A stretch of 64,000 nt of DNA, taken from the IMG/VR virus record IMGVR_UViG_3300017432_000006, positions 8,857 to 72,856 of that record; one strand, given 5' to 3'. The position numbers and the translations under genes were made by a program. The notes under the pieces are model-generated. The model was not told where the DNA came from. It worked only from the letters and a program-made list of their open reading frames with translations, and ran no database searches. Of this stretch, positions 48,481-60,553 are shown piece after piece. Source of the stretch: a virus (taxonomy: Duplodnaviria; Caudoviricetes). The first letter of the stretch is position 1. Every line of letters starts with the position of its first letter.

Positions 48481-48631
48481 CCGGGGCTTCGTTACCAATT
48501 TGTTACCTAATTTGCAGATTCAAAATTTTAGTATGCGGGAATTACTAACGGATGGTGTCTGGAAAGCATAAAAGGCATTTCCAATTAGTGCGCACATAAG
48601 AGCAGTTTTAATTCATGCTCAGGAATTGTTT

Positions 48632-48793
48632 TCAGTTGATTCGCGCCCCCGGAAGAAAGTCATTCATTCCGAAAGTAGAAACCCAACCATCCTCCATCGT
48701 GAATGTGATTGTCTCACCATCAAAAGAAACAACGGCCTGAGTAACCTTGAATCCGCTGATGATATCACCAACGAGAATCTGCGAAGCCTTCAT
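48632..48793 (-). CDS. Small beta-barrel-like early protein (53 aa)
   Basis: MKASQILVGDII...; RBS AAAGGA. Confidence 0.6.
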   Translation of the reverse strand: MKASQILVGDIISGFKVTQAVVSFDGETITFTMEDGWVSTFGMNDFLPGARIN

Positions 48794-48860
48794 TTCAATT
48801 CCTTTGTTCGATGGGGAGGGGTGGGAAGTTTAAAGACATTCCCAGGTCTTAGAACTTAGA

Positions 48861-49094
48861 TCAGAGGAACTTGCCGGAAGCGGTGAGAAGCATTCCGCAA
48901 GAAACGCACTTGTGAGCCCCAACAGAAGCCTTGAAGTGCATATCCCCACCACACTTACAGGTCTCCGTACCGTGCTCACCAGAGCGCGTGTACTCGTCAC
49001 GGATAGCGGCCACCTCATAGCCGTGCTCATCCGTACCCGCGTAGGTGGTGTGGGCGCGAGCAACAGCGGCGGCGAACCAGGGGTTGTGCTTCAT
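48861..49094 (-). CDS. Zn-ribbon early protein
   Basis: CKCGG...CVSCG; first gene after promoter 49166. Confidence 0.7.
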   Translation of the reverse strand: MKHNPWFAAAVARAHTTYAGTDEHGYEVAAIRDEYTRSGEHGTETCKCGGDMHFKASVGAHKCVSCGMLLTASGKFL

Positions 49095-49138
49095 GACTGC
49101 CTCTCCGTTGGGGGACCCTCCCCCTTCCTTGTGCCTTA

Positions 49139-49166
49139 AGTCTATGGCATACAGGCACAGTGTCAA
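49139..49166 (-). promoter_or_regulatory. Early promoter TTGACA-16-TAGACT with tandem ARG-like boxes at 49189-49222
   Basis: Consensus hexamers; conserved leader to GGAGAGG-ATG. Confidence 0.8.
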
Positions 49167-49231
49167 GCCCAAACAGCAAAATCCCCAATGAATTTTCATG
49201 CATGGGTGTGCATGATCATGCAGTGTCCGTA

Positions 49232-49362
49232 ATGTCCGATTTGTCCCTTTTGCCCTAGAGTGACTGCTGGCACTTTCAGAATGTCCGTTTTGTCCCTGCC
49301 AGGGTCAATGTCCGATTTGTCCCCCGCCCCATGGGCGGTATCCCATATGTCCGTTTTGTCCT
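49232..49362 (+). repeat. Four iterons ATGTCCGWTTTGTCC
   Basis: Copies start at 49232, 49281, 49308 and 49347. Confidence 0.85.
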
Positions 49363-49470
49363 AGGTTGTACTGATATATCCTGACATATCGTGATTTGGC
49401 CCTGTTGTCCCTTTACCACAAAGGCCGGGGATGGTGAGGGTAGTTTAGCCACATACCCTAGGTGGTAGTA

Positions 49471-49611
49471 TCACAGATTCCAGATAGATTCGATTGTCTC
49501 TAGCGTAGCCTCATAAGCCTCAGCCTCTTTGATGTTTCCTTCCTCCCGGCATTCCTCAGCACACTCAGAAATCATCTTGTGAAGCCGGTTAGCCTTTTCG
49601 TCAAAAGCCAT
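49471..49611 (-). CDS. Small acidic early protein (46 aa)
   Basis: Flanked by two pseudoknot elements; RBS AGGA. Confidence 0.6.
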   Translation of the reverse strand: MAFDEKANRLHKMISECAEECREEGNIKEAEAYEATLETIESIWNL

Positions 49612-49681
49612 TGTTTGTCCTGTCTGTGAGAAAGGGCGGGGGATTGGTGGGCAGTTTTACTACTTACCCAGGTAGTCCTAA

Positions 49682-49855
49682 CTAGGAAGCGATACGGACG
49701 ATGCGACGGCGGGTGATCTGGAACTTAGAGATGCAGTTATCACCAGTAAGGGTAATCACCTTCCCCGTCTCCATGGAACGTGCCTCACCGTAACCCAGGA
49801 ATTCGAAGTGCTCGCCATTGGTGTAACGGATGAGGACGGTACCGACGGTCTTCAT
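49682..49855 (-). CDS. Early protein (57 aa)
   Basis: First gene after promoter 49928. Confidence 0.65.
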   Translation of the reverse strand: MKTVGTVLIRYTNGEHFEFLGYGEARSMETGKVITLTGDNCISKFQITRRRIVRIAS

Positions 49856-49898
49856 GATTCCCTCTCCGGTTGGGGTCTTTCCCCTCCCTGTAAGCACC

Positions 49899-49928
49899 AT
49901 GGTAGTAGGGGTTGGGGGAGTCTGTCTA
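49899..49928 (-). promoter_or_regulatory. Early promoter TAGACA-18-TACCAT with a TGTAC direct repeat at 49948-49964
   Basis: Hexamers plus conserved leader. Confidence 0.7.
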
Positions 49929-50049
49929 CTCGAAACGGCAAGATTTTTGTACTGACTTTTGTACCGGGTCACCGCCCGCAGGGTGGTTGCGTGTTCAACC
50001 AAATGTGTTGTGTGAGAATGGTTTTCAGCAATAGTGGAAACGGCGGGTG

Positions 50050-50202
50050 TTAGTCAGGGTTAGTCATATCCCTAATGTAGTAACTAACAGAGGTGTATTC
50101 CCTAGACAAAGAATTGCGGTACTCAATTGCAGCGGCATGTGTATCGAATGGTCCATACACATCAGCAGGGTATCCATAAATGGTAGCGACAATGCAGCAC
50201 AT
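50050..50202 (-). CDS. Early protein (50 aa, YGPF motif)
   Basis: RBS AAAGGA; MCCIVATIYGYPADVYGPFDTHAAA. Confidence 0.55.
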   Translation of the reverse strand: MCCIVATIYGYPADVYGPFDTHAAAIEYRNSLSREYTSVSYYIRDMTNPD

Positions 50203-50404
50203 GCGGTAAATCCTTTCGTTTTGTGGGGTATTTGCGGAATTAATTGCGGAAAATGGCCGAATTTGCGGAAAAAGGGGCGCTATATGTAAAAAACCAATGC
50301 CTAAAAATCGGCTGTCACAGAATTTTTGTTCAACAATTCATTTTTGTCACATGAATGCTAACCTTGTTCATCTACACGTTCGGTGCGCTATATCTTCGAC
50401 CTTT

Positions 50405-51072
50405 TCAGTAAACCGTCCGGTAGTCCGTTATCTCTATCACTGTGGTATGTACTTCAATAGGATCGCTAGGGGTTGCTATCTCTTCCCGCGTCTCCCGCGC
50501 CGCCTGTAATGTTGGGTATTGCTGCCCACCGAACCAAATGCTTTCTTGTCTCACTGTGGGACGTTTGCTGTAAGTGCTTTCTATCTCATTCATCAAACCC
50601 CGCCCGTCCGGCTGTAGTCGAATAGCGCCTTCTCTAGATACTTACACATATCACGATACTCAATTAAGTTCTTTCGTGCTTCGTAAAAGGTGTGTAGTGC
50701 AAAATACTCTGAATCATTGTTAATAAGGCTTGCCACTTCAACCCCGCGCCTTTTCTACATTGACACCAGTAACAATGAATCCGTAGGCAATGTTCTCCCG
50801 AGTCTCAATCTCTTCAACATTCATTTCAACCCCGCGCCTCATCGTAGTTGTCAATAGCCGTAGCGACCATCATTCGCATATCCCGCACATCATCCCGGCG
50901 CATTCCGTCAAGCATTCCGAGGAACATCTTTGCAGCGTCATACTCAGCGTCATTGTTGATGAATGCCCTAGGCTGATAAACCATCTTAACCCCGCCGATT
51001 CTTGAGAATGTCCCTAATGTCAAGCAATAGCCAACAGATAACCACTAGCAGAAAGAAGATACCAACGTCCAT
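50405..51072 (-). other. Chain of five translationally coupled mini-ORFs (50986-51072, 50826-50984, 50738-50824, 50593-50736, 50405-50593)
   Basis: Each start is preceded by GCGGGGTT; lengths 28, 52, 28, 47 and 62 aa. Confidence 0.65.
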
Positions 51073-51144
51073 CCTAACCCCGCCTTTTCGTTGTTGTGCG
51101 CTATTGGTGTGGGCCTTTTACCGACAATGCCCAGGTCTATTCAC

Positions 51145-51306
51145 TTACTTGTCCCAACGAATGTTCGTCTTAACCCATTCACGCATTCCCTCGTCACCCT
51201 CAGAAAGCATCTTCTCATAAAGGTCAATCATTGCGGCCTGATAGCCATTCATGTGCCACTTTGTCTGAGTAGTACCATTGGGGGCGTAAGCGGGAACAAC
51301 GCGCAT
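51145..51306 (-). CDS. Early protein (53 aa)
   Basis: Between two pseudoknot elements; RBS AAAAGG. Confidence 0.6.
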   Translation of the reverse strand: MRVVPAYAPNGTTQTKWHMNGYQAAMIDLYEKMLSEGDEGMREWVKTNIRWDK

Positions 51307-51384
51307 TGTTTCGGCCTTTTCTGTGAATGGTGCCGGGGTTTTGGTGGGGCCTTTTAGAATGTCATGCCCAGGACATTTGCTGAA

Positions 51385-51549
51385 TCAGTAAACAGTGACG
51401 AACAAATCACGCTGACGGTGAATCCGCTGAGTCTTTCCGTCAGCCGCAACAAAGAGGATCGTAACAAAGTCACTGTAACGGTGCGCGGCGGTCACCGTAC
51501 CCTCATCGATGACGTCCCCGGCCTCAAGGTCCCAAACGATCTTCTTCAT
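51385..51549 (-). CDS. Small beta-barrel-like early protein (54 aa)
   Basis: First gene after promoter 51623; paralog of 54443..54622. Confidence 0.7.
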   Translation of the reverse strand: MKKIVWDLEAGDVIDEGTVTAAHRYSDFVTILFVAADGKTQRIHRQRDLFVTVY

Positions 51550-51595
51550 GATTCCCTCTCCGTCCGGGGGACGTTCCCCCTTCCTTGTAAGACCT

Positions 51596-51623
51596 AGCGT
51601 ACACCATCTAGGGGCGTGGTCAA
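51596..51623 (-). promoter_or_regulatory. Early promoter TTGACC-16-TACGCT with a perfect CRP-type site at 51644-51659
   Basis: TGTGA-CGTGCA-TCACA. Confidence 0.75.
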
Positions 51624-51659
51624 CCCCAAACCGCGCGGGTCAGTGTGACGTGCATCACA

Positions 51660-51806
51660 TCACGGACGGTCAACGAACCTAACCGTAAATTCCTCCGTAT
51701 CATTAGACTTACTGACATTCTCATAAGCATCATCAATGTCGTCAAAGGGCCCGGTAATTCCGAGAATAAAAGCGTTCTTTGCGTCCTGCTTAACGATAAC
51801 GTACAT
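51660..51806 (-). CDS. Early protein (48 aa, GPF motif)
   Basis: RBS GAGGG. Confidence 0.55.
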   Translation of the reverse strand: MYVIVKQDAKNAFILGITGPFDDIDDAYENVSKSNDTEEFTVRFVDRP

Positions 51807-51814
51807 TCTACTAA

Positions 51815-52027
51815 TCACTCACCCTCACGATAGACAATGGTGTCGGAAGTGTCATACTCGGGAACACGAACAGGATTCATCCAAATGCTGCGTCGAACGT
51901 CAGCATTCCTTGACAGCAATTCATCACGCAATCCCCGCCGGGCGGCAATCAAAGGGCCTACACAATCGCGCGGGACTCGAACGTGCCAGATACCAAAACC
52001 GTTAGCCCAGGTGGTAACCATCGTCAT
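51815..52027 (-). CDS. Early protein (70 aa)
   Basis: RBS AGGA after a pseudoknot element. Confidence 0.65.
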   Translation of the reverse strand: MTMVTTWANGFGIWHVRVPRDCVGPLIAARRGLRDELLSRNADVRRSIWMNPVRVPEYDTSDTIVYREGE

Positions 52028-52092
52028 TCCTGCTTTCTTTGTAGGTAATGGTGGGGCCTTTTACAGACATGCCCGGGTCTATTGTTCGGATA

Positions 52093-52398
52093 TCACATAA
52101 AACGCATCATTGCACGGTCAAGACGAGCCATCTTCTCATCGAAAGACAGTTCGACACTGGCAAGAATCATTGCGCGATAACGGGCGCCGATCTTTCGGTT
52201 GGTCTCCCGCGCGTCCCGCGCCGCCCACTCAGCCTGCCGCGCGCTAGCCACCGTGGCGCACGTTCCAGCGTGGTCCCCACGGCTGTAGTAACCAGAAGCG
52301 TACTCAGCGGAGAGGTTAACCGTAGCACCGAAGCACGTTCCGACCATGGTGCCACACTCAGCGCACGCCCGGACACTGTGAACACGATTCGTCGCCAT
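52093..52398 (-). CDS. Early protein with CxxC (101 aa)
   Basis: First gene after promoter 52469; RBS GGAGGGAG. Confidence 0.7.
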   Translation of the reverse strand: MATNRVHSVRACAECGTMVGTCFGATVNLSAEYASGYYSRGDHAGTCATVASARQAEWAARDARETNRKIGARYRAMILASVELSFDEKMARLDRAMMRFM

Positions 52399-52439
52399 GG
52401 TGCTCCCTCCCGGTAGGGTCCCTCCCTGCCGTTGGGTCA

Positions 52440-52469
52440 AGTATAGGCACGGCAGGGAGGGGCGGTCAA
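52440..52469 (-). promoter_or_regulatory. Early promoter TTGACC-18-TATACT with a GTGA-N7-TCAC site at 52492-52506
   Basis: Near-consensus hexamers. Confidence 0.8.
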
Positions 52470-52502
52470 CCCGAACGAACAACTACTTTGGGTGACTGCC
52501 GA

Positions 52503-52862
52503 TCACTCAAAGTCAAACGAGGGACGACGAATGCTGTAACCGGCAATTCGGTAATCGGGAAGCCCGGCAATCTGAGAAAGCACAGAATCAACCTCGAAAA
52601 CATCGAGCCAACCGATAACATCACCAGTGACCGGGGTTCCATAGGTAATGTCACCATCCTCATTCAGAACAGCAATCTCCCAAAGACCATCCCGACCACC
52701 ATAACTACCAGAGTGAGAAATGATAGAAGCGGCAAAACCGTTCTCAAAAAGAATGACAATTCGCTTACTGTTGGGAATGCCGTCAATAGCGCCCGCCTCA
52801 ATCACAACACCATTGTTGTGAAGGGTAAGCATGTTTCCGGTGATGGTGGCGAGAGCAGACAT
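52503..52862 (-). CDS. Conserved phage protein (119 aa)
   Basis: FENG..ASII....SYGG..GLWEIAVL......Y.TP.T.DV.GWL pattern, common in diverse phages. Confidence 0.7.
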   Translation of the reverse strand: MSALATITGNMLTLHNNGVVIEAGAIDGIPNSKRIVILFENGFAASIISHSGSYGGRDGLWEIAVLNEDGDITYGTPVTGDVIGWLDVFEVDSVLSQIAGLPDYRIAGYSIRRPSFDFE

Positions 52863-52927
52863 TGTTTTTCCTTTCCAAGAATGGCCGGGGGATTGGGCCT
52901 TTTTGTATCTTGCCCAGGATATTTAGA

Positions 52928-53065
52928 TCAGTAGCAGTGAATGCACTCGTGATCGGGGTTACCAATCGCGGCAATGCAATCCATCATCCCGAAGAAGTCA
53001 TCAGCGTGCTCATCCTCGGGACCGAACTTTGCCGGGTCATCCTCGAAGTCAAAGTCAAAAGCCAT
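52928..53065 (-). CDS. Very acidic Cys/His-containing early peptide (45 aa)
   Basis: First gene after promoter 53141. Confidence 0.65.
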   Translation of the reverse strand: MAFDFDFEDDPAKFGPEDEHADDFFGMMDCIAAIGNPDHECIHCY

Positions 53066-53111
53066 GATTTCCTCTCCGGTCCGGGGGTCCGTCCCCCTTC
53101 CTTGTGTCTTT

Positions 53112-53141
53112 AGAGTAAGCCATGGGGAGGGGTAGGTGCAA
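53112..53141 (-). promoter_or_regulatory. Early promoter TTGCAC-18-TACTCT with tandem ARG-like boxes at 53165-53198
   Basis: Hexamers plus conserved leader. Confidence 0.7.
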
Positions 53142-53245
53142 GCCGAAACCGAAGATTTTTCCCATGAATTTTCATGCATGGTGGCGCATGATCATGCATG
53201 GGCCGGGGAGGTTAGGCAGTTTATTCACATACCTAGGTGAGAATG

Positions 53246-53668
53246 TCACCCAAAGAAATCCGGCAGGGCAACCGGGTCATTCATGGTGCCATTCTTGAAG
53301 TTGTAAAGCACCCAAGCCGTGCGACCATTCCCGTCAGTGAACGGGTGAATCCAAAGAAACTCCTTAATCCATTCATCGACAGTAAGGTCATTGCCATGCA
53401 CGATAAGGCCAGAAACAAGCCGAACAACATCAGCGGCATTTGCAGCCGTACCACCATTGGCAAAGGTAACCGGCGTCTTTCGGTAAACCCCGCCATTGTC
53501 CGGCTCAACAATACCGGCAAGAATAGCGATGCTGCCCATCGTGATATCGGCGGGAGAAAGCGAAGAAGCGTACTCGTAACCCCGAATCAGTGTCCAAAGG
53601 CGCTCAATTCCAACGTGCTGCCGCTCGCACTCAATAGCAGCCGCAGAAGCAATCGCGTGAATGTTCAT
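53246..53668 (-). CDS. Fic/Doc family protein
   Basis: HPFTDGNGRTA Fic signature; YR...V.F flap motif. Confidence 0.9.
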   Translation of the reverse strand: MNIHAIASAAAIECERQHVGIERLWTLIRGYEYASSLSPADITMGSIAILAGIVEPDNGGVYRKTPVTFANGGTAANAADVVRLVSGLIVHGNDLTVDEWIKEFLWIHPFTDGNGRTAWVLYNFKNGTMNDPVALPDFFG

Positions 53669-53736
53669 CGAATTCTCTTTCTGTCGTTTTCGGGAATGGG
53701 TGTGGGCCTTTTAACATCATGCCCAGGATGTTTGAA

Positions 53737-53880
53737 TCAAGCCATAGAACGGAAGTCAACCATGTGGGTAAGATTTCCATTCTGAATCTTGCACCAGCCA
53801 AAAACAAATTCAATGACAGTACCGGTGCGAGTCATTCCCGAAAGGTCGCGCCCGACGATCTTGTCACCAATGTTCGGCAT
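53737..53880 (-). CDS. Small SH3/KOW-like early protein (47 aa)
   Basis: First gene after promoter 53954. Confidence 0.65.
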   Translation of the reverse strand: MPNIGDKIVGRDLSGMTRTGTVIEFVFGWCKIQNGNLTHMVDFRSMA

Positions 53881-53925
53881 GATTTCCTCTCCGGGGGAAG
53901 GTCCCTCCCTCCCCCTGCAAGCACA

Positions 53926-53954
53926 AGGGTAACGGTCTGGGGGAGGGTTGTCTA
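53926..53954 (-). promoter_or_regulatory. Early promoter TAGACA-17-TACCCT with tandem ARG-like boxes at 53977-54010
   Basis: Hexamers plus conserved leader. Confidence 0.7.
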
Positions 53955-54035
53955 CTCGAACGGCAACTTTTTCCCATGAATTTTCATGCACGACCATGCA
54001 TGATCATGCGCGACGCTGAGTGTCTTTGATCCTCG

Positions 54036-54221: not shown

Positions 54222-54225
54222 TGTA

Positions 54226-54442: not shown

Positions 54443-54622
54443 TCAGGAATTTCCCATTTCGAAAACCGTCAGCATCACATCCCGAAGAAAGCACTCACGA
54501 CCGTTAACACCATCATTGGTGAAACGAACATCAACAAACTCACTGTATCGGTAAACAGCGGTAACGGTACCGTATCCCATGACAACATCACCGATAGTCA
54601 GAGACTGTGCATCCTTGAACAT
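54443..54622 (-). CDS. Small beta-barrel-like early protein (59 aa)
   Basis: L.IGDV....GTVTAV.RYS.FV; paralog of 51385..51549. Confidence 0.7.
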   Translation of the reverse strand: MFKDAQSLTIGDVVMGYGTVTAVYRYSEFVDVRFTNDGVNGRECFLRDVMLTVFEMGNS

Positions 54623-54663
54623 GATTTCCTTTCCTGGCCGGGTCCCTCCCTGCCGATGTGATA

Positions 54664-54749: not shown

Positions 54750-54784
54750 GGCCGGTAGGCTGAGTGTGTACCTACCTACCGGCC
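54750..54784 (-). terminator. Hairpin/terminator after gene 54799..55197
   Basis: GGCCGGTAGG/CCTACCGGCC 10-bp stem. Confidence 0.55.
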
Positions 54785-54798
54785 TGTTCCTGGGACCC

Positions 54799-55197
54799 TC
54801 AGAGAGCGGCTACAGCGTGCCTAGCGCGTGCCTCATCAATGGGCAGGGGATAACCCGAGGAAGTACGGGAAAGGAAATCATCGGAACCCTTATCATAAGG
54901 CGTCAGCATATCGGCATCAAGAGCAAACAGATATGCCAGGAAGAATCCCCAAGAATCATAGGTGGCAGCATAGTCAAGGGAATAGCGGTCAACATTCTTT
55001 GCAGTACCGGCATTAACGCGCCTCTTTGAATGGGTCCCGTCACCGATCAACTTAACGGTAATGCCATTCTTGCGCTTAGTGCTACCGTGCCAATCGAAAT
55101 CATCAAGAATGACCTTACCGTGCCCGGCATTTCGCGCAGCATACTCAGTAGCAGAAACAATATCCTTGTAACCGATAACGTCAGAGTGAATACGCAT
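54799..55197 (-). CDS. Conserved hypothetical protein (132 aa)
   Basis: HGSTKR...AATYDSWG.FLA.LF..D pattern. Confidence 0.7.
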   Translation of the reverse strand: MRIHSDVIGYKDIVSATEYAARNAGHGKVILDDFDWHGSTKRKNGITVKLIGDGTHSKRRVNAGTAKNVDRYSLDYAATYDSWGFFLAYLFALDADMLTPYDKGSDDFLSRTSSGYPLPIDEARARHAVAAL

Positions 55198-55199
55198 GA

Positions 55200-55490
55200 T
55201 TACCTCTTAATCTTAGTCGCGGGAAGATTGAAGGGAATTGCTTCGATAAACCAATCACGATCAAAGCCGTAACCATCCTGCGCGTCGCAGAAAGCCTTAC
55301 CGTCCGCCCAATTGTCGAAGATAGCAACAACGTTAGGCGTACTATGCCAGGAATCGGCATTGCAATACTTCACCGCCCAAATGGTGTTTGTAAAGTCACC
55401 AATGGAAACAATGCTACTCATATCAATCCTCCCAATGCCCATCCATTGCATTGTCAACAATGGCATACTCTGAATTGTAGTGAATGTCAT
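55200..55490 (-). CDS. Hypothetical protein (96 aa; true start may be internal)
   Basis: ORF in series. Confidence 0.55.
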   Translation of the reverse strand: MTFTTIQSMPLLTMQWMGIGRIDMSSIVSIGDFTNTIWAVKYCNADSWHSTPNVVAIFDNWADGKAFCDAQDGYGFDRDWFIEAIPFNLPATKIKR

Positions 55491-55561
55491 GACTAGGCGC
55501 GGAAATCTCGCACGGGAAACGCTCGGGGGAATCGCGGAACCACATCACCGAATTACACACA

Positions 55562-55735
55562 TCAAACCTCTCGAATACGCATACGGTTGGCGTAGTTTGG
55601 CTGATTCTCTCGATACTCAGCAAAAGCAATCTCAGCGTCTTTGCGAGTATCCTTTGCCGGGCCGATAGGAAGCCATACCTGTGTCATTCTCGCGCCGCTA
55701 AACGGGTTGATCTTCTTAACCTCAACAACAAACAT
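55562..55735 (-). CDS. Early protein (57 aa)
   Basis: RBS GAGAGG. Confidence 0.55.
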   Translation of the reverse strand: MFVVEVKKINPFSGARMTQVWLPIGPAKDTRKDAEIAFAEYRENQPNYANRMRIREV

Positions 55736-55909
55736 GGGAATTCCTCTCAGAAAGCCGGGGGACGCTCTAGCGAAGAAACATACATCATATCGAAGGAAGG
55801 CGCCTTTGCCTTTGCCTTGAACATTCGCCGGAAGAAAGCCACGGGAATTCTCCTAATGTATTGCGAGGAATGGGAGGGTTAGTTTTACATCATAACCCAG
55901 GATGAGATA

Positions 55910-56053
55910 TCAGAAACGCTCGCGGCTGATAACCCGGTCGTCCTTGTCAAGAACGATGCGAACATTGTAGAGAAAGACGCCGTAAGGGTCAAGGATACGG
56001 TAAATGGGAAAACCGTTGTCATCGAAACCCATAAAACGCTCGCGGTTGTCCAT
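55910..56053 (-). CDS. Early protein (47 aa)
   Basis: First gene after promoter 56125; RBS GAAAGG. Confidence 0.6.
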   Translation of the reverse strand: MDNRERFMGFDDNGFPIYRILDPYGVFLYNVRIVLDKDDRVISRERF

Positions 56054-56096
56054 GGGTTCCTTTCTCGGGAAGGTCCGTCCCTCCCTGACAAGACCT

Positions 56097-56125
56097 AGTT
56101 AATCACCATCCGGCCCGCCCGTCAA
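56097..56125 (-). promoter_or_regulatory. Early promoter TTGACG-17-TTAACT with a CRP-like site at 56146-56161
   Basis: TGTGG-N6-TCACA. Confidence 0.65.
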
Positions 56126-56295
56126 GCCGAATCGGCGGGGTTGTGTGTGGTGTGCGTCACACTACGCAGAGTAACCGCCGGATACCGATTCTAGAAACCA
56201 CCCAACGGTGCTATTTCTAGAATCGGCCCGGAATTAGCGAGGATTGAACCAACAAATCCAAAGAACAACCAACAGGACAACTACAGGAATGCCAT

Positions 56296-56469
56296 TCATC
56301 GTCCGCGCCGAATGTCATTGAAGAAACGAGCCGTACCAGCGAAACTACCACCAGTCATGCAATACGCCGCCCAAATCTCGGAATTGGGAATGAAGTTGTC
56401 GGGGTTGAAGGGGTTACCAATGTCACTCCCGAAACGAACAGCATCGGCAATCATCGAAGTAGTGATCAT
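56296..56469 (-). CDS. Early protein (57 aa)
   Basis: First gene after promoter 56609 and the three-way-junction leader. Confidence 0.6.
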   Translation of the reverse strand: MITTSMIADAVRFGSDIGNPFNPDNFIPNSEIWAAYCMTGGSFAGTARFFNDIRRGR

Positions 56470-56502
56470 GATTTCTCTTTCTCGGGATGGAATGGTGCGG
56501 GA

Positions 56503-56575
56503 TTGTCAGGAAGCCGTTAACAGACCACAGACATTCGTTAAGGGATTTTTTGGTATCTCCCTCACTTCCTGACAA
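56503..56575 (-). ncRNA. Three-way-junction 5' leader RNA, copy A
   Basis: 11-bp P1 UUGUCAGGAAG/CUUCCUGACAA; homologous to 59817-59908 and 60754-60824. Confidence 0.65.
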
Positions 56576-56580
56576 GAAGA

Positions 56581-56609
56581 ACACTACGGGACCGCGCACC
56601 CAGAGTCAA
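56581..56609 (-). promoter_or_regulatory. Early promoter TTGACT-17-TAGTGT with a TGTAC direct repeat at 56618-56634
   Basis: Near-consensus hexamers. Confidence 0.8.
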
Positions 56610-56846
56610 GCCAGTTCTGTACCAACTTTTGTACCAAATTTTTTCAGCGTCTCCCGCGCCCAACCCCTCCCCCGGTACCCACCTACCCTGCCCTTCCTGG
56701 CAGGCTCTCAGTGTGCCCTACAGGCTCCCTAGCCTAGAAGTCTGATGGTGTGTAGTGGTCCGGGCCGGGGCAAGGAATGTCCGTCAAATCAAAGTCATAG
56801 TCTCTACAATGACAACAGATACCATCGGGTGTAAAGGAATGTCCCA

Positions 56847-57008
56847 TCAGAATTCCACCGCGATATCGAAATTCTCGCCCTCACTGGAAAGCCCGGCGTC
56901 AAATGCCGCACGAACAGCAGCGGCAATCATATTCGGAATGTCAACGTCAGCCATTTCAGCGCAATTGATGGAAAGATCACCGGCGTCATTGCGAACGGTA
57001 ATAAGCAT
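56847..57008 (-). CDS. Early protein (53 aa)
   Basis: TGATG coupling on both sides. Confidence 0.55.
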   Translation of the reverse strand: MLITVRNDAGDLSINCAEMADVDIPNMIAAAVRAAFDAGLSSEGENFDIAVEF

Positions 57009-57262
57009 CAGAAAAGGTTCCCATCCTGAGGAATAGCGGTGAAGAAATCAAAGGCAACAGCCTCGAACAAAGCATCACGCGCGGTTAGCGTAGTGTCCTC
57101 GTAGAACATATCCTGCGCGCGCGGGCAAATTACATCATACATGTAGCCATATGTCGCGGTATCCCAATAGGGACCGTCCGTACGCTCGAAAGCATAAAAG
57201 TAAACCGCCTCTCCCTCAAACCTCTCGGAATTGATTTGCTCGTCACGAATAGGATTGGTCAT
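57008..57262 (-). CDS. Acidic hypothetical protein (84 aa)
   Basis: RBS AGGAAG. Confidence 0.6.
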   Translation of the reverse strand: MTNPIRDEQINSERFEGEAVYFYAFERTDGPYWDTATYGYMYDVICPRAQDMFYEDTTLTARDALFEAVAFDFFTAIPQDGNLF

Positions 57263-57268
57263 TGCTAC

Positions 57269-57418
57269 TCACTTCCTGCGCTTGTAGTAATCGGGATCGC
57301 CGGTAATATAGGTGCCAGTGTGAATGATGATCTGTCCGTTAGCGTCAGTCACCTTAATGTGGTCGGGAAGCATCTTGTCTAGAACACGAATCATCTTGAC
57401 AGTGAATAGTGGTCGCAT
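57269..57418 (-). CDS. Early protein (49 aa)
   Basis: Open frame filling the gap between neighbours. Confidence 0.5.
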   Translation of the reverse strand: MRPLFTVKMIRVLDKMLPDHIKVTDANGQIIIHTGTYITGDPDYYKRRK

Positions 57419-57494
57419 AAGCATTCCCAATGGGTCGGGCGGGGGACACTAACTATCGCATCCCCCGCCATTGGTTGTCAACCCAGGAATGTAT

Positions 57495-57782
57495 TCAGTA
57501 AATCTTTCCCTGATGCTTAGAAGTAGTAACCGAATACTTTACAGGCGGCTTAACCTCAGTACCATCAGAAAGCACCCAAGCAATCGGCGTGCCGTAAGAG
57601 AGAACAGTGTAAACAATGTCATTTCGCTGCGCCCGGTACTGAGTAGCGTACTCACTAGGCATACGCCCGGAATCCCAATAGGCACCAGCCATAGCAGAAA
57701 GCGCACCGTGCGTGTCGAAAGGAATTCGCTTACGCCAGGAATCGGTAACATCAAAGGAGCGGGAGGAAATCTTAGCAGCCAT
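57495..57782 (-). CDS. Conserved phage protein (95 aa)
   Basis: Y.V.SYGTPIAW......KYS.TTSKHQ pattern; RBS AAAGGA. Confidence 0.7.
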   Translation of the reverse strand: MAAKISSRSFDVTDSWRKRIPFDTHGALSAMAGAYWDSGRMPSEYATQYRAQRNDIVYTVLSYGTPIAWVLSDGTEVKPPVKYSVTTSKHQGKIY

Positions 57783-57850
57783 TGTCGTTATCCTTTGTGA
57801 GTGATTGGTGCGGGATGATGTGTCAAGCGTATGTGTTGCGGCACTACTTG

Positions 57851-58144
57851 TCAAGCCGAGACGTTATCGGAAATCCACTCAGAACGAACATCGGAATCGT
57901 CGGAATTGTAAATGTCAAAGGGCATTTCTACCTCAGTGAAATTACCGTCAGTGTAATCGCTAAACCCCACCCGATAAGCAATAGGGTCCATTTCCTCAAG
58001 CACCCGCGCGGGATCAAAAGAACAGCCCGCGACATTGACCATCGGATAACACTCATTCAGCATATCCCGGTAAAGGTCATCCATTTCATCCTGAGTGTAA
58101 ACCGTATCATCGGTGACATAAACGGTGATGGTGCCGGAAGCCAT
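57851..58144 (-). CDS. Acidic conserved phage protein (97 aa)
   Basis: ML.ECYP.V.VAG..F..A.VL.E.DP.AY pattern. Confidence 0.7.
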   Translation of the reverse strand: MASGTITVYVTDDTVYTQDEMDDLYRDMLNECYPMVNVAGCSFDPARVLEEMDPIAYRVGFSDYTDGNFTEVEMPFDIYNSDDSDVRSEWISDNVSA

Positions 58145-58205
58145 TGCGATATCCTTTGTTCGGTTCGGGATGATGGTAAGAGTCTAGCCTATAGAACCGC
58201 GCGGG

Positions 58206-58487
58206 TCAAATCGTGGGGGAAATCCAGAAATGGTACCCACCAGCAGTCTCGGAAAACTCATTTGCATTCCCGATATTGTGCAGGGCAGTGTGAATGTCAA
58301 GCCAAATCTCGTCAGAAGTGATATCCATTCCATCATTCCAGCGAGGGTCACTGTCATTCTGAGAATCACCATCCCAGAAGTGATCAACAATACCAACGAG
58401 ATGTGCCACGGCATCCTCGAAAGAATCGAAAGTCTCCGGGTCATTCTCAGGAAGATAACCGGGCATGTTGTAACCGGCAGTGAACAT
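58206..58487 (-). CDS. Acidic hypothetical protein (93 aa)
   Basis: RBS AAGGAG before ATG 58487; AG.NMPGYLPE. Confidence 0.65.
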   Translation of the reverse strand: MFTAGYNMPGYLPENDPETFDSFEDAVAHLVGIVDHFWDGDSQNDSDPRWNDGMDITSDEIWLDIHTALHNIGNANEFSETAGGYHFWISPTI

Positions 58488-58780
58488 ATCAATTCTCCTT
58501 GAATGGGGACGGACGGTTAGCCAATTGACGGAACCGATAGGTGCGCGGGTGAATGATTCGGTTAAACAATCTCCTAAGCATTGACTTCCAATCGTCGGGG
58601 GATAATGCATTGTGAATGTGGTCCGTCCGGTTGATTCCGGTTCTTTGGGATTTGATAGTCCCAATGTGTTATCCGCTTATCGCGGGAATACACCAACGGA
58701 TACTAAGCCAGTGACAACCGAAACCGATTGTCGTTATTACTGGCTAGGCAGTTTGAATTCCTACCCAGGAATTGAAGGAA

Positions 58781-59026
58781 TCAGGCTTCCCTCTGCGCCC
58801 GGCGCCATGCCATAAAAGCATCACTCTCCCCATTAGCGATAATCTCGTCAATAAGAGCGTTAATCCGCTCCTTATCCTTTCGCATAGCCTTATCGCGGGA
58901 AACCTCCTCCCACACAGACATTCCGCAAAGACGGAAAGTGAGACAAAGAGCGTGAGAATCGTAAGACTGCTCCAACTTAGCCATACGCTCGAAACGGGCA
59001 ACACTCTCAGCCTTGAAGTCAGTCAT
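58781..59026 (-). CDS. Early protein (81 aa)
   Basis: First gene after promoter 59098. Confidence 0.65.
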   Translation of the reverse strand: MTDFKAESVARFERMAKLEQSYDSHALCLTFRLCGMSVWEEVSRDKAMRKDKERINALIDEIIANGESDAFMAWRRAQREA

Positions 59027-59069
59027 GATTCCCTCTCTCGGGCCGGTATCTCCTGCCCTTGTGACTACA

Positions 59070-59098
59070 ACTATACGCACGGGACGGGGGAGCGTCAA
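59070..59098 (-). promoter_or_regulatory. Early promoter TTGACG-17-TATAGT with a GTGA-N7-GCAC site at 59131-59145
   Basis: Near-consensus hexamers. Confidence 0.8.
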
Positions 59099-59381
59099 GC
59101 CGAAACCCAAGTTTTTTCTGACTACTTTGCGTGACCATGTTGCACGCTCAACTACTTGTCTCGTCACTGAGAGTAACCGTTGAAAGATATCCAGCCATAT
59201 ATGGGTGTGGGTATTCACCACATATGGCTAGGTAACCCCCAACGGGGGAGCATACATTACCCAGGAAGTATGCTAGTTCCATTCCCGCGAATTTGCCGTC
59301 CGATAGATAGGCTCTCAGGAAACGATTCGATGGGATTTGGTATTGCGTCCGCGTGTTAGGTATGCGCGGCCCACCATTGAA

Positions 59382-59726
59382 TCACTCAGCCGCGACCAGC
59401 GCAGGGTTAGCCTGAGCGTACTCGGTAACCGTACCGGTCGCAACCGCCAGGAGAGCAGCGTCCGCGATCTTGCCACGCGCGCCCACCTTAGCGCCAGCGT
59501 CCCGAAGAGCCTGCCGCGCGTCGTCAAGGTTGACCTTGACCGGACGACGCTGACCCTTGACCTTGACGTCAACGGTGGGGATGTGCTCGCCAGCGACGTA
59601 CCGGCGGTCAGCAGGCTTGCCCTTGTTAAAGGCAGCGATGACCTCAGCGGAGAACTTGCCGCGGGTGCCGACGGCCATACCAGCGGCGGCGGCGAAGGAA
59701 CGAACAGCAGCGGGGGAAGCAGACAT
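59382..59726 (-). CDS. lsr2: Lsr2-like protein with two tandem DNA-binding domains
   Basis: VRSFA...G.AVGTRGKF and ARQAL...G.KVGARGKI AT-hook-like RGK motifs. Confidence 0.75.
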   Translation of the reverse strand: MSASPAAVRSFAAAAGMAVGTRGKFSAEVIAAFNKGKPADRRYVAGEHIPTVDVKVKGQRRPVKVNLDDARQALRDAGAKVGARGKIADAALLAVATGTVTEYAQANPALVAAE

Positions 59727-59816
59727 AATCGGTGATCCATTCTGTGTGTGTGGTCGGAAGACTTTTGCAACCGATCCGGTGGTGATGGGTGAAACTCTAC
59801 AACCTGTGGAGCCTGT

Positions 59817-59908
59817 CTGTCAACCCGTAACCCCGGCCCGTTATCGGCCCGTTCATGATCGCTAGCAGGTTTTGGACTATCCTGCCGACCGGGGTTCCTT
59901 GCTGACAA
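59817..59908 (-). ncRNA. Three-way-junction 5' leader RNA, copy B (lsr2 leader)
   Basis: P1 AACCCCGG/CCGGGGUU, P2 GCAGG/CCUGC; same loop and junction motifs as copies A and C. Confidence 0.6.
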
Positions 59909-59913
59909 GAAGA

Positions 59914-59942
59914 ACATTACAGGTGCCGCTAGGTCCGGTCAA
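59914..59942 (-). promoter_or_regulatory. Early promoter TTGACC-17-TAATGT with GTAAC-N6-GTAAC at 59963-59978
   Basis: Near-consensus hexamers. Confidence 0.8.
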
Positions 59943-60034
59943 CCCCAAACACCAAGATTTTGGTAACGGTTGTGTAACGGTCTTGTGTCGTACAGGTGTT
60001 CGATGATTCAAAGTTAAACTACCTGTAAATACAG

Positions 60035-60062
60035 AAATCCCCCGGCAAAAGGCCGGGGGAAT
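60035..60062 (-). terminator. Intrinsic terminator
   Basis: TCCCCCGGC/GCCGGGGGA stem followed by UUU. Confidence 0.7.
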
Positions 60063-60068
60063 CCGTAA

Positions 60069-60245
60069 TCAAACCTCGTTATCCCTTTCAATCCAGTAGT
60101 GAGTATGGGCAACGGCTTCCCGATTAGCCATTCCTTCAAGGGAATAACCGAAAAGCGGACCGCATATCTTACAGGTAAGGAACCACCCATCTAATGCGCC
60201 GGGGCCACTAGCCTTTGTCGGCTTAACATCGACAGTGTGAAGCAA
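60069..60245 (-). CDS. Zn-finger-like early protein (58 aa)
   Basis: RBS AGGAG, TTG start; CKICG...H.H. Confidence 0.55.
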   Translation of the reverse strand: MLHTVDVKPTKASGPGALDGWFLTCKICGPLFGYSLEGMANREAVAHTHYWIERDNEV

Positions 60246-60354
60246 TGTATTCTCCTAAATGATTGATGAATGGGTGGCGGGATTTCATACCCGCTATCTC
60301 TGTGATTCGATCACAGTAAGTTTGTGAAGCATTCGACTCTACCCATTGTGGTAT

Positions 60355-60486
60355 TTAGTTGTCGCGCTTCCATTCACGCTTTTCTTTTGCCTTTTGCGCG
60401 CGCTTTGCCTTTTCGGTCCACCGCTTTGTTACCGGTTTGTCGTGACAAGCGCCGATCTTTGCGCCTAGGCTGTTCATCATTCGCAT
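60355..60486 (-). CDS. Small Lys/Arg-rich protein (43 aa)
   Basis: ..KRWTEKAKRAQKAKEKREWKRDN; paralog-like to 60554..60718. Confidence 0.6.
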   Translation of the reverse strand: MRMMNSLGAKIGACHDKPVTKRWTEKAKRAQKAKEKREWKRDN

Positions 60487-60553
60487 AACGGTATTGTATC
60501 CTAACCGTAGAGGGAATGGGAGGGTAGTTTATTGTCATACCCTAGGACAAAGA

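Follow-up and report, generated by a model that had tools for sequence, protein, structure and literature searches.

A coremin-like RNA pseudoknot, arrayed behind stop codons in one phage and widespread in others, as a candidate roadblock on polycistronic mRNA

The closest known RNA to the element described here is the coremin Xrn1-resistant motif (xrRNA-C) together with its Watson-Crick variant. Coremin of BNYVV has the form GUC-CGAA-GAC-GUUAAACUAC, in which the C-G closing pair is required and A16-A20 are essential (PMC6546385). In the Watson-Crick variant, loop and spacer pair as a short S2; in its published model, the adenosines of the spacer occupy the minor groove of S1 (PMC10321173). 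Xrn1 stalls at coremin, which also blocks scanning ribosomes and promotes -1 frameshifting (PMC10321173), the two effects on ribosomes being those seen in eukaryotic lysates. As a flaviviral xrRNA also halts bacterial RNase J1 in vitro, blocks of the xrRNA type are mechanical and not enzyme-specific (PMC5760640).

The window analysed here is a 64 kb stretch of a viral contig. Between 48.6 and 60.5 kb it carries 15 pseudoknot elements on the minus strand, directly 3' of the stop codons of small early genes. An actinobacterial host for this phage, assumed in an earlier sequence-only reading, is supported by the capsid region of the contig, which shares 72-80% identity with Streptomyces cluster BE phages, and by an Lsr2 DNA-binding-domain protein encoded in the region. 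Inspection of the sequence bore out the number and positions of the elements given by that reading, their strand specificity and placement after stop codons, and every loop/tail pairing that it listed. The elements are as follows.

60521..60550, minus strand: pseudoknot copy; S1 UUGUC/GACAA, loop CUAGGGUAU, L3 UAAAC, tail UACCCU; 3 nt past UAA; next start 34 nt; 43.5 bits
59228..59274, minus strand: variant copy; S1 AGCAUAC/GUAUGCU, loop UUCCUGGGUAAU; tail UUACCUAG pairs with CUGGGUAA; missed by the covariance model
58744..58773, minus strand: pseudoknot copy; S1 AAUUC/GAAUU, loop CUGGGUAG, tail CUGCCUAG; 7 nt past UGA; then ~250 nt non-coding; 37.1 bits
55876..55904, minus strand: pseudoknot copy; S1 CAUC/GAUG, loop CUGGGUUAU, L3 UAAAAC, tail UAACCC; 5 nt past UGA; 40.5 bits
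54410..54442, minus strand: pseudoknot copy; S1 CUAUUC/GAAUAG (extensible to 9 bp), loop CUGGGCAU, tail UGCCCA; 0-3 nt past UGA; next start 31 nt; 47.8 bits
53703..53732, minus strand: pseudoknot copy; S1 AACAUC/GAUGUU, loop CUGGGCAU, L3 AAAAG, tail GCCCA; 4 nt past UGA; next start 34 nt (Fic-domain gene); 48.4 bits
53213..53240, minus strand: pseudoknot copy; S1 UCAC/GUGA, loop CUAGGUAU, tail UGCCUA; 5 nt past UGA of the Fic-domain gene; then promoter module, no gene; 41.5 bits
52894..52921, minus strand: pseudoknot copy; S1 UAUC/GAUA, loop CUGGGCAA, L3 CAAAAAG, tail GCCCA; 6 nt past UGA; next start 31 nt; 37.6 bits
52054..52082, minus strand: pseudoknot copy; S1 (AU)AGAC/GUCU(GU), loop CCGGGCAU, tail GCCC; 10-12 nt past UGA; 44.8 bits
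51347..51377, minus strand: pseudoknot copy; S1 AUGUC/GACAU, loop CUGGGCAU, L3 (U)CUAAAAG, tail GCCC; 7-8 nt past UGA; next start 40 nt; 39.2 bits
51110..51137, minus strand: pseudoknot copy; S1 GAC/GUC, 9-nt loop CUGGGCAUU, tail GCCCA; 7 nt past UAA; 31.3 bits
49648..49676, minus strand: pseudoknot copy; S1 ACUAC/GUAGU, loop CUGGGUAA, L3 AAAAC, tail UGCCCA; 5 nt past UAG; next start 36 nt; 44.7 bits
49437..49465, minus strand: pseudoknot copy; S1 CCAC/GUGG, loop CUAGGGUAU, L3 CUAAAC, tail UACCCU; 5 nt past UGA; then repeat-rich 300-nt spacer and promoter; 45.1 bits
48822..48850, minus strand: pseudoknot copy; S1 AAGAC/GUCUU, loop CUGGGAAU, L3 UAAAC, tail UUCCCA; 10 nt past UGA; next start 28 nt; 47.2 bits
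48600..48627, minus strand: last pseudoknot copy; S1 AAUUC/GAAUU, loop CUGAGCAU, L3 AAAAC, tail UGCUC; 4 nt past UGA of the last leftward gene; 39.3 bits

The loop pairs with the tail as GAGCA/UGCUC (48.6 kb), UGGGAA/UUCCCA (48.8 kb), AGGGUA/UACCCU (49.4 and 60.5 kb), (U)GGGC/GCCC(A) (51.1-53.7 kb), UAGGUA/UGCCUA with one G-U (53.2 kb), GGGUUA/UAACCC (55.9 kb) and CUGGGUAG/CUGCCUAG with two G-U (58.7 kb). At 59.2 kb, ~105 nt past the stop codon of an Lsr2-like gene, a CCCCC-GUU-GGGGG hairpin takes the place of the A-rich linker and CUGGGUAA/UUACCUAG pairing spans it. The retention of pairing across this insert stood as first described, but the C:G closure said to be absent from this copy is present. 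Support for this variant is weaker, since it is a single instance. A covariance model built from the other 14 copies recovered these and no others, every one on the minus strand (E 5e-13 to 1e-7), with the next-best match in the 64 kb window at E 1.3 and no additional copies in the remaining 8.9 kb of the contig. The gap between stop codon and S1 is 0-10 nt in these 14 copies, in keeping with the 0-12 nt claimed; the 25-45 nt claimed to the next RBS instead matches the spacing to the next start codon, which is ~26-40 nt for ten of the elements. Downstream of the remaining five there is a promoter, non-coding DNA or nothing, the 48.6-kb copy having no co-oriented gene downstream. A second type of junction, in which stop and start codons overlap without a knot, is present in the same region (50.6-51.1 kb).

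Covariation was assessed in two alignments. For the window copies (A1), 93.7% of cells were paired as compared to 71% in shuffles and 32-41% with the partner slid, double changes were present in 7/9 pairs, and the observed covariation was reached in 0/500 shuffles. For 124 matches from the window plus viral contigs (A2), obtained with a model from which S2 was absent, 93% were paired with double changes in 8/10 pairs (0/500 shuffles). The A2 matches contained S2 variants GAG/CUC (n=11), GGC/GCC and AGG/CCU, and two had the closing pair flipped to G-C. Other S2 variants were GGGG/CCCC and GGGGGC/GCCCCC in cyanobacteria and AAGCA/UGCUU in Moraxella phage Mcat1. The H-type pseudoknot originally proposed is well supported, with both helices covarying in the window and in >100 other contigs. 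This support comes from covariation and not from energy, as single window copies are thermodynamically ordinary in nested folding (z about 0), which yields S1 or S2 singly. The 3' flank is G-poor and without excess structure (z -0.26). The consensus of ~28 nt consists of a 3-6 bp S1 closed by C-G, a loop CUGGGYAW and a tail URCCC(A), with a loop of 8 nt in 119/124 matches and 10 nt from closing G to tail in 102/124. Strong conservation of primary sequence across very different phages was observed at C13, GGG, A20 and AAAC. Transcribed within leftward early mRNAs, the element would fold autonomously into a compact H-type pseudoknot, in which L1 would be a single C across the S2 groove, S2 would comprise 5-6 G-C-rich pairs between loop UGGGYA and tail URCCCA, and the A-rich linker NUAAAC would run along the S1 minor groove.

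The motif is very widespread and not private to the window phage, contrary to the initial view of a private system of its 'mini-gene module'. It was found, with new compensatory variants, in >100 unrelated viral contigs, cultured phages and cyanobacterial genomes, the usual number outside the window phage being one or two copies per genome. Carriers span 6-kb Microviridae, large cyanophages and bacterial chromosomes. Cultured carrier phages (e.g. Microbacterium phage Count and Corynebacterium phage phi673) have hosts in Corynebacterium, Microbacterium, Cellulosimicrobium, Moorella, Geobacillus, Streptococcus, Nostoc, Synechococcus and Sinorhizobium, and copies were also found in Moraxella phages and crAss-like phages. 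Bacterial genomes contained the motif in 14/151 cyanobacteria, 1/151 Bacteroidia, 0/151 Actinomycetes and 2/151 gammaproteobacteria, both of the latter being weak and unconvincing when inspected. A search for RNase J was positive in control genomes (B. subtilis, C. glutamicum, S. elongatus and Caulobacter) and was above cut-off in 0/101 Gammaproteobacteria and 0/101 Bacteroidia. Nearly all of the cultured hosts found belong to groups with RNase J; the host groups of the Moraxella and crAss-like phages were without it in the sampled genomes. The suggested Rfam check (Rfam 15) returned no family at gathering score or at E<=10, and no publication describing the motif in phages was found.

Across the family, S1 starts 4-7 nt past the stop codon (mode 5), and 10/18 matches in cyanobacterial genomes have a stop that ends 9-11 nt ahead of the loop. 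The next start codon is 20-40 nt past the tail in about half of cases. With these spacings, S1 lies immediately beyond the footprint of the terminating ribosome and the knot has room between that footprint and the next. The tightest positional constraint is to the upstream stop codon and not to the downstream RBS, which is unpaired and 15-30 nt from the knot. Copies also accompany RNA genes, being found 1-9 nt before a tRNA 5' end in six viral contigs, likewise just before a tRNA in Nostoc phage NMeng1, in the gap separating two tRNAs (L099) and within the intervening segment of a permuted tmRNA; these tRNA- and tmRNA-precursor copies have no ORF upstream. Since copies occur at operon ends and directly before tRNAs, the element is not tied to a downstream RBS alone. 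Flanking genes are diverse, those upstream including major head proteins, Hsp20 (10/68), SSB and RecT, and no protein family co-occurred with the motif among the flanking genes inspected. Crude and noisy gene calls gave 14 cases of a same-strand upstream with an opposite-strand downstream gene and 6 of the reverse. Most copies in a bacterial small-ORF family have the stop codon within the knot or past it. The open stretch behind the stop had a median of 7.5, 9 and 7 codons for the three frames, and a single slippery heptamer was present among 74 copies, neither measure giving a recoding signature.

Given its wide spread in unrelated phages and some bacteria, its absence from Rfam and its close likeness to coremin, the motif probably serves to mark and protect the borders of genes on long messages. 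Our preferred reading, held tentatively, is that the element acts without protein on polycistronic early mRNA as a mechanical roadblock or boundary element, RNase J being the enzyme most likely to be blocked; its activity, direction and enzyme are what we infer. An RNase J roadblock was the first function suggested by the sequence-only reading, and it gains indirect support from the likeness to coremin and from the membership of nearly all cultured hosts in groups with RNase J. Sitting where the mRNA is free of ribosomes, between one that is terminating and one that is initiating, the knot would both mark the boundary and stall a 5'-to-3' decay enzyme on the polycistronic transcript (i.e. RNase J in an actinobacterial host, elsewhere possibly scanning RNase E), such that the downstream cistron or RNA gene would retain a protected 5' end. 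At a 3' end, the same knot could also hold up 3' exonucleases. Carriers among Moraxella and crAss-like phages, whose host groups were without RNase J in the samples, and the 0/151 Actinomycetes genomes count against RNase J. Counting against a 5' roadblock are the 48.6-kb copy without a downstream gene and two others followed by promoters, and these unit-end copies (48.6, 53.2 and 49.4 kb) favour a somewhat unlikely reading in which read-through transcription is followed by endonucleolytic or RNase P cleavage and 3'-to-5' exonucleases then trim the RNA as far as the knot. The knot is as near the stop codon, its sharpest positional constraint, as a terminating ribosome permits, and would therefore protect the upstream cistron without transcription termination. 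The highly expressed genes upstream (major head proteins, Hsp20, SSB and RecT) and the noisy 14 versus 6 strand cases agree with this. So do the knots before tRNAs in six contigs and NMeng1; following RNase P cleavage at the tRNA, the knot would be at the 3' end of the upstream RNA, a placement no less in keeping with protection of 3' ends than of 5' ends. However, a 3' block in the tRNA-tRNA gap of L099 or the permuted tmRNA segment would hinder 3' maturation, ordinary hairpins usually do this job and the related coremin fold is known solely as a 5'-to-3' block.

Insulation of translation is unlikely. With the stop codon in the A site, the knot would abut the mRNA entry channel, barring post-termination or read-through ribosomes from the next cistron and uncoupling neighbouring genes. 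The 4-7-nt spacer is that of frameshift and read-through pseudoknots, coremin acts on ribosomes in eukaryotic lysates, and knot-free junctions with overlapping stop and start codons are present in the same region, all of which speaks for such a role, but the copies without an upstream ORF, the small-ORF family and the missing recoding signature speak against it. Despite that spacing, the short open codons and single heptamer make a recoding signal (stop-codon read-through or frameshift) scarcely credible. The same grade applies to a DNA-level recombination module for cassette shuffling; the elements flank one-gene units, but what the covariation and the strict strand bias indicate is an RNA fold, and recombination could only be a by-product. 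A switch or small riboswitch, in which a ligand or translation toggles between S1 hairpin and S2 helix, might be suggested by the nested folds, by the 54.4-kb S1 that can extend to engulf the linker and by the preQ1-I-like topology. This is highly improbable, as the very constant loop and linker lengths suit a simultaneous knot, no riboswitch family matched even at E<=10, the unpaired RBS and unrelated flanking genes provide no expression platform, and a metabolite sensor would hardly be expected in 15 copies behind unrelated genes. The conserved bases could instead be contacts, and not fold determinants, for a protein or RNA polymerase (in processive antitermination, a translational operator or a processing enzyme), and location after promoter-proximal genes is shared with the lambda nutR and HK022 put sites. 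Such a binding site is nevertheless quite unlikely given the diverse flanking genes, the lack of a co-occurring protein family and the breadth of carriers from Microviridae to bacterial chromosomes. Cyanobacteria are not known to possess Rho, so an anti-Rho role could not be general. The same conserved bases are, moreover, required for protein-free Xrn1 resistance in coremin (PMC6546385).

Among the known folds invoked by the sequence-only reading, the preQ1-I riboswitch and the gene 32 operator resemble the motif in topology and no further. Its comparison with plant-virus xrRNAs holds for coremin and fails for the dianthovirus/luteovirus class. Two differences separate the motif from coremin: loop position 2 is U in place of the G needed for Xrn1 resistance, and hp2, the second hairpin directly after the spacer that is also needed for resistance, is absent. 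Both count against the roadblock reading. Otherwise, the architecture is that of the coremin and Watson-Crick coremin of eukaryotic RNA viruses, with near-identical sequence outside the loop. The 10 nt from closing G to tail correspond to GACGUUAAAC of coremin, and phage copies such as gtcCTGGGTATgacgttaaactaccc are identical to BNYVV coremin outside the loop (PMC6546385).

Fifteen short elements were located on the minus strand of the window between 48.6 and 60.5 kb. The copies consist of a 5' stem (S1) of 3–6 bp closed by a C-G pair, a loop of 8 or 9 nt (C-U-R-G-G-N-A-W), an A-rich linker with AAAC or AAAAG at its 3' end, and a tail complementary to the loop (the loop/tail helix is termed S2). 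Every one of the loop/tail pairings listed in an earlier sequence-only reading was present in the sequence, and the 59.2-kb copy does, as had been claimed, keep an 8-bp pairing despite an inserted hairpin (i.e. CCCCC-GUU-GGGGG, which replaces the linker). The AAA run is invariant across the other 14 copies, and the alignment of these copies (A1) was used to construct the covariance model (R1) that the same reading had proposed. Searching the window with this model recovered exactly those 14 copies, all on the minus strand and with E values of 5e-13 to 1e-7, the 59.2-kb variant lying outside the model. The next-best match in the 64 kb had an E value of 1.3 and the remaining part of the 72.9-kb contig yielded zero further copies. 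In A1, 93.7% of cells were paired as compared to 71% in shuffles and 32–41% when partners were slid; both-sided changes were observed at seven of nine pairs and the observed covariation was reached by 0 of 500 shuffles. Nested folding of single copies was unremarkable, selecting S1 or S2, and hence the evidence for the fold is comparative and not energetic. A generic search for H-type topology was rejected as evidence, since the hundreds of chance matches in 64 kb mean that topology alone is uninformative. With 15 copies in 12 kb, the array is the richest among those observed and provides a natural series of compensatory variants.

The wider occurrence of the motif was examined using a degenerate pattern in which S1 was not demanded. 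Matches were obtained in at least 114 IMG/VR contigs, whose local G+C content ranges from ~25% to 67%, and the covariance model added copies that fall outside the pattern; the motif is not private to the window's phage. An S1 of at least 3 bp was present in 110 of 116 pattern matches as compared to a chance expectation of ~14% (our estimate, from the odds of two further random positions pairing). A second alignment of 124 sequences from the window and viral contigs (A2) had 93% of cells paired and double changes at eight of ten pairs, a result equalled by 0 of 500 shuffles. For S2 alone (5–6 bp), double changes were observed at four of six pairs and the score was again equalled by 0 of 500 shuffles; as S2 was absent from the model structure behind A2, this covariation is independent of the fit. 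Variants of S2 included GAG/CUC (11 times), GGC/GCC, AGG/CCU and, in Moraxella phage Mcat1, AAGCA/UGCUU, and both strands lengthen in step in GGGG/CCCC and GGGGGC/GCCCCC. S1 in A2 is 3–6 bp long (mode 4) with a closing pair of C-G in 121/124 or G-C in 2/124 sequences, the loop consensus is C-U-G-G-G-Y-A-W (8 nt in 119/124), the distance from closing G to tail is 10 nt in 102/124, and the linker carries AAACU in 102/124 or the variant AAAAG in 22/124. Simultaneous formation of both helices as an H-type knot is sterically ordinary (L1 loop, 1 nt; S2, 5–6 bp; junction, 1 nt; A-rich linker L3, 4–7 nt; S1, 3–6 bp). The covariation in A1 and A2 establishes the pseudoknot fold of the original proposal. 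A pattern scan of bacterial genomes gave 120 matches, about half of which were due to chance (i.e. inside coding sequence and with S1 not formed), such that scan counts are not copy numbers.

The suggestion that this motif had not been described was upheld by Rfam 15, whose models gave zero matches in the whole window at gathering score and no relevant match, preQ1-I (RF00522) included, between 48.4 and 61 kb at E ≤ 10. Membership of an Rfam family, including preQ1-I, was dropped as no model matched, and no published account of a comparable element from phages or bacteria was found in literature searches. A tRNA-like acceptor knot (i.e. TYMV type with an NCCA end) was also rejected: CCA or ACCA follows many window copies but is not family-wide, and the 3' flank of the wider family is variable and A/U-rich.

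S1 begins 0–10 nt past a stop codon in 14 window copies and a start codon lies 26–40 nt beyond the tail in ten copies; promoter modules or long spacers follow the others, and the last copy, at 48.6 kb, is without a co-oriented gene downstream. For 46 of the 124 A2 sequences, the stop codon of the upstream ORF ends 8–11 nt ahead of the loop, with S1 beginning 4–7 nt past the stop (mode 5). An ORF end was found within 4–20 nt for 59% of motif matches as compared to 7% of random positions, and the stop-to-loop distance was 9–11 nt in 10 of 18 matches in cyanobacterial genomes. When the stop codon occupies the A site, the first S1 pair is at about +12 from the first P-site base, a position just outside the ribosomal helicase site. 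This stop-to-S1 spacing is the same geometry as that of frameshift knots. In annotated cultured phages the motif is co-oriented with genes, and matches start 5 nt (Microbacterium phage Count), 18 nt (Moorella phage MTATph1) or ~100 nt (phi673 and NMeng1) past the end of a CDS. The upstream genes are varied, with Hsp20 in 10 of 68 and also head proteins, polymerases, SSB, RecT and regulators. The knot lies 1–9 nt 5' of a tRNA in six viral contigs (loci L099, L047, L060, L059, L087 and L051; in L099, between tRNA-Met and tRNA-Asn) and precedes a tRNA-like gene in Nostoc phage NMeng1 (L252). In the crAss-like phage cr7_1 (NC_055895.1; L346:472-835), a permuted two-piece tmRNA gene has the knot at 601-632 within its intervening segment; 3 nt further on is GGGCGUG, interpreted as the 5' acceptor strand of the tmRNA, and the 3' part of the gene is overlapped by a tRNA-Cys call. 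Crude gene calls were too noisy to decide between operon-end and operon-start copies because the window's own small genes were miscalled.

Other elements were observed near the knots of the window:
57408-57496, minus strand: very stable nested structure just past a stop codon (-41 kcal/mol, z -5)
49091-49130, 49852-49891, 51546-51585, 52395-52434, 53062-53101, 53877-53916, 54619-54658, 59023-59062 and 61244-61283, minus strand: nine leader modules
49171-49221, 53147-53197 and 53959-54009, minus strand: three palindrome-rich blocks (GCATGATCATGC ... CATGCATGAAAATTCATGGG) just upstream of promoters
56509-56590, 59838-59923 and 60758-60840, minus strand: three leaders of ~80 nt (CCUUGUCAGG.AGUGAGGG...AAAAAAYCCCUUAACGA...CGGCUUCCUGACA) after promoters
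61423-61550 and 49240-49420, non-coding spacers: three tandem 46-nt repeats plus dispersed GGACAAA(A/U)CGGACAU-type repeats
50590-51075, minus strand: five consecutive mini-gene junctions with a shared GGCGGGGUU and then a stop

The structure at 57408-57496 opens with the pseudoknot 5' half AUUCCUGGGUUG and has the partner CGACCCA beyond a G+C-rich hairpin, so that its pairing is nested and not knotted; either a terminator or a derived form of the motif could account for it. Each of the nine leader modules comprises a G+C-rich hairpin followed by GGAGAGG(G/A)AAUCAUG (i.e. a strong RBS plus start codon) and is situated downstream of a TTGAC...TAnnnT promoter-like site, indicating that the early region is built from repeated promoter-leader units plus knots. 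The palindrome-rich blocks look like operators and the repeats in the spacers like iterons or operators. The ~80-nt leader, for which Rfam contained no match, is a candidate second structured RNA. At the mini-gene junctions the stop abuts or overlaps the next start (e.g. GGUUAGGAUG, GGUUGAAAUG, GGUUUGAUG), and this coupled type of junction is without a pseudoknot. In a set of bacterial loci (L141, L143, L152, L162, L164, L169, L179, L181, L189, L193, L196, L209, L215, L221, L224, L228, L232, L233, L235, L236 and L247), the knot overlaps the end of a conserved ORF of 16–31 codons (M..YMLRPVAHCKEGCS..SWA* or MKRFMIPRxAHCxGGCH*) whose stop codon can precede the knot, lie within it or come after it. 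Carriers of this small ORF include Desulfobacterales, Planctomycetes, Omnitrophota, Peptococcaceae and others, and it had no family match in NCBIfam. The downstream gene, where callable, is often an Rrf2-family regulator and, at one locus, hydroxylamine reductase (hcp); small ORF and knot together may represent a leader-peptide device.

With an estimated completeness of 55%, the IMG/VR record of the window's phage is incomplete; the capsid region exhibits 72–80% identity to Streptomyces cluster BE phages. The early genes of this phage encode an Lsr2 DNA-binding-domain protein (59385-59726, minus strand; E 6e-11) and a small Fic/DOC-domain protein with an HPFTDGNGR motif (53249-53668, minus strand; E 2.5e-7). 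The BE-like capsid region and the Lsr2-domain protein make an actinobacterial host likely, in agreement with the setting assumed by the sequence-only reading. No convincing copy was detected in three Streptomyces BE phages (i.e. NootNoot, StarPlatinum and Birchlyn), the nearest cultured relatives. Searches for close relatives with an orthologous array found none via the Fic-like protein, Megablast of the early region was empty, and a 414-aa ORF of the structural region had distant matches only. Hosts of the cultured carriers were Corynebacterium, Microbacterium, Cellulosimicrobium, Moorella, Geobacillus, Streptococcus, Nostoc, Synechococcus (several phages) and Sinorhizobium, with Moraxella phages Mcat1/2/4/5, two crAss-like phages and one gut microvirus as exceptions. 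The many enterobacterial and Pseudomonas phages of the collection were without a convincing copy, their matches being short and inside coding genes. Among sampled genomes, the model matched 14/151 Cyanobacteriia, 1/151 Bacteroidia and 0/151 Actinomycetes; matches in 2/151 Gammaproteobacteria were weak and were discarded as S1 was not formed on inspection. RNase J (TIGR00649) scored over the cut-off in 0 of 101 Gammaproteobacteria and 0 of 101 Bacteroidia, and was detected in the control genomes (i.e. B. subtilis, C. glutamicum, S. elongatus and Caulobacter). These distributions are suggestive of carriers being mostly, not only, phages of RNase J-bearing hosts, within a sample biased by the BLAST queries. 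One copy (40 bits) was present 24 nt past a peptidase gene in Sigmofec virus UA08Rod_4626 (L250; Microviridae, 6085 nt, ssDNA), and a cyanobacterial chromosome (G388; L253-L255) contained six copies, including a duplicated locus pair after Rad52-like and other prophage-type early genes.

The best-supported inference is that the knot acts as a protein-free mechanical roadblock at unit boundaries, a reading to which we would give somewhat less than an even chance. The knot would sit in the space that separates a terminating ribosome from an initiating one, such that translation would never melt it, and would halt 5'-to-3' decay (by RNase J in the host of the window's phage), so that the 5' end of the next cistron or RNA gene stays protected. 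The strongest alternative reverses this picture, with the knot protecting the 3' end of the upstream message; in its favour are the tight anchoring to the stop codon, copies that close an operon and copies just before RNase P sites, and it is considered rather improbable. Both the 5' roadblock and the 3' protection could be true of one knot. The copies before tRNAs and inside the tmRNA gene indicate that the element is not bound to translation; a function as a translation insulator is less probable than either of these two, and one as a protein or polymerase site slightly less probable still.

Recoding (i.e. -1 frameshift or read-through) is unlikely and was rejected, as the median number of open codons past the stop was 7.5, 9 and 7 for the three frames, one slippery heptamer was found in 74 copies, and no extended downstream frame was present. 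Frameshifting knots of the luteovirus type (BWYV, ScYLV, PEMV-1) are likewise compact H-type structures of ~28 nt positioned 5–8 nt past the A-site codon, with an L1 of 1–2 nt containing C over a G-C-rich S2 and an A-rich L3 in a minor-groove triplex with S1, whereas the phage motif has another primary sequence, follows a stop codon and lacks a slippery site or extended frame. A ligand switch is also unlikely. The preQ1-I aptamer resembles the motif in its H-type pseudoknot, A-rich 3' linker and size, but the motif has neither SD sequestration nor a terminator, does not match RF00522 and has unrelated flanking genes.

Coremin (xrRNA-C) occurs in many eukaryotic RNA viruses, among them BNYVV (RNA3/5) and the cucumoviruses (Dilweg et al. 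2019, PMC6546385; 2023, PMC10520033). The BNYVV sequence is GUC-CGAA-GAC-GUUAAACUAC, and coremin needs a C-G closing pair, a YGAD or YGNNAD loop, A16–A20 and, directly after the spacer, a second hairpin (hp2) of at least 4 bp that is required for Xrn1 resistance; Xrn1 stalls in vitro just 5' of the first hairpin, hp1 (PMC6546385; PMC10520033). Coremin also stimulates -1 frameshifting (PMC10321173) and blocks scanning ribosomes (companion paper to PMC10321173). Outside the loop, phage copies of the type gtc-CTGGGTAT-gac-gttaaac-taccc show no difference from coremin. Both elements are small (~27–45 nt), occupy UTR or intergenic sites, sometimes at stop codons, and have a short 5' hairpin of 3–5 bp with a C-G loop-closing pair, a loop that opens with a pyrimidine and ends in A-D, and 10 nt from the closing G through ...UUAAAC followed by U-A/G-C. 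The phage S1 (3–6 bp; C-G in 121/124) agrees with hp1, and the fixed-length spacer ...GUUAAACUAC with A16–A20 is present. The loop departs from YGAD/YGNNAD: the first Y and final A-D fit, but position 2 of the 8-nt CUGGGYAW is U where coremin requires G, and the phage loop makes 5–6 Watson-Crick pairs with sequence past AAAC. The phage motif is also without hp2, the 35 nt past the tail folding no better than shuffles (mean z -0.26) with G at 16% versus 24%, and its carriers are DNA phages and bacteria, which are without Xrn1.

Watson-Crick coremin (xrRNA-WCC) is represented by selected variants and by Sanxia picorna-like virus 5; its S2 consists of 3 bp formed between loop and spacer, and in the published model the spacer adenosines occupy the minor groove of S1 (Dilweg et al. 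2023, PMC10321173). The phage motif shares the antiparallel, canonical pairing of hp1 loop with spacer 3' of the AAA run (evident from the S2 covariation), an L1 of 1 nt and an A-rich L3, which the published WCC model sets in the minor groove of S1; that hp2 is dispensable for the ribosome-directed (frameshifting) activity of WCC is counted as a further likeness. In contrast, WCC has an S2 of only 3 bp that is formed by a 4-nt loop and begins one base earlier, its L1 is G, and hp2 is still needed for exonuclease resistance, whereas the phage loop is 8 nt, L1 is C and hp2 is lacking. The phage motif is a longer-S2 version of the WCC architecture; owing to the U at loop position 2 and the missing hp2, it was filed as a new variant and not as a coremin member. 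It probably works like coremin. Class 3 plant xrRNA (PMC11702639) is another xrRNA class with no bearing on the phage fold. A flaviviral xrRNA halts bacterial RNase J1 in vitro (PMC5760640), indicating that such blocks are mechanical and not enzyme-specific.

It is conceivable, if doubtful, that the element is the prokaryotic counterpart of coremin xrRNA, by homology or convergence. That would make it the first class of exoribonuclease-resistant RNA from phages or bacteria, a protein-free stop for RNase J (perhaps for other translocating enzymes) that divides transcripts gene by gene into stable units. The window's phage would then use it 15 times in 12 kb. To our knowledge, programmed exonuclease resistance has so far been confined to RNA viruses of eukaryotes. 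A 28-nt sequence-defined knot with strong covariation, near to coremin outside the loop and spread from Microviridae to large cyanophages and bacterial chromosomes, raises the testable questions of whether the same trick is played against RNase J in bacteria and phages, how the many tiny early phage genes are expressed from long transcripts, and what minimal fold is able to stall a translocating enzyme. As a part of very small size, it could also be transferred to Gram-positive, actinobacterial and cyanobacterial hosts to stabilise or insulate cistrons. Gene-by-gene structured RNAs on a polycistronic transcript are likewise a feature of the RNase III sites of the phage T7 early region and of mitochondrial tRNA punctuation, which define and stabilise individual messages; those are long duplexes or tRNAs cleaved by known endonucleases, whereas the phage motif is a 28-nt knot with no known cleavage.
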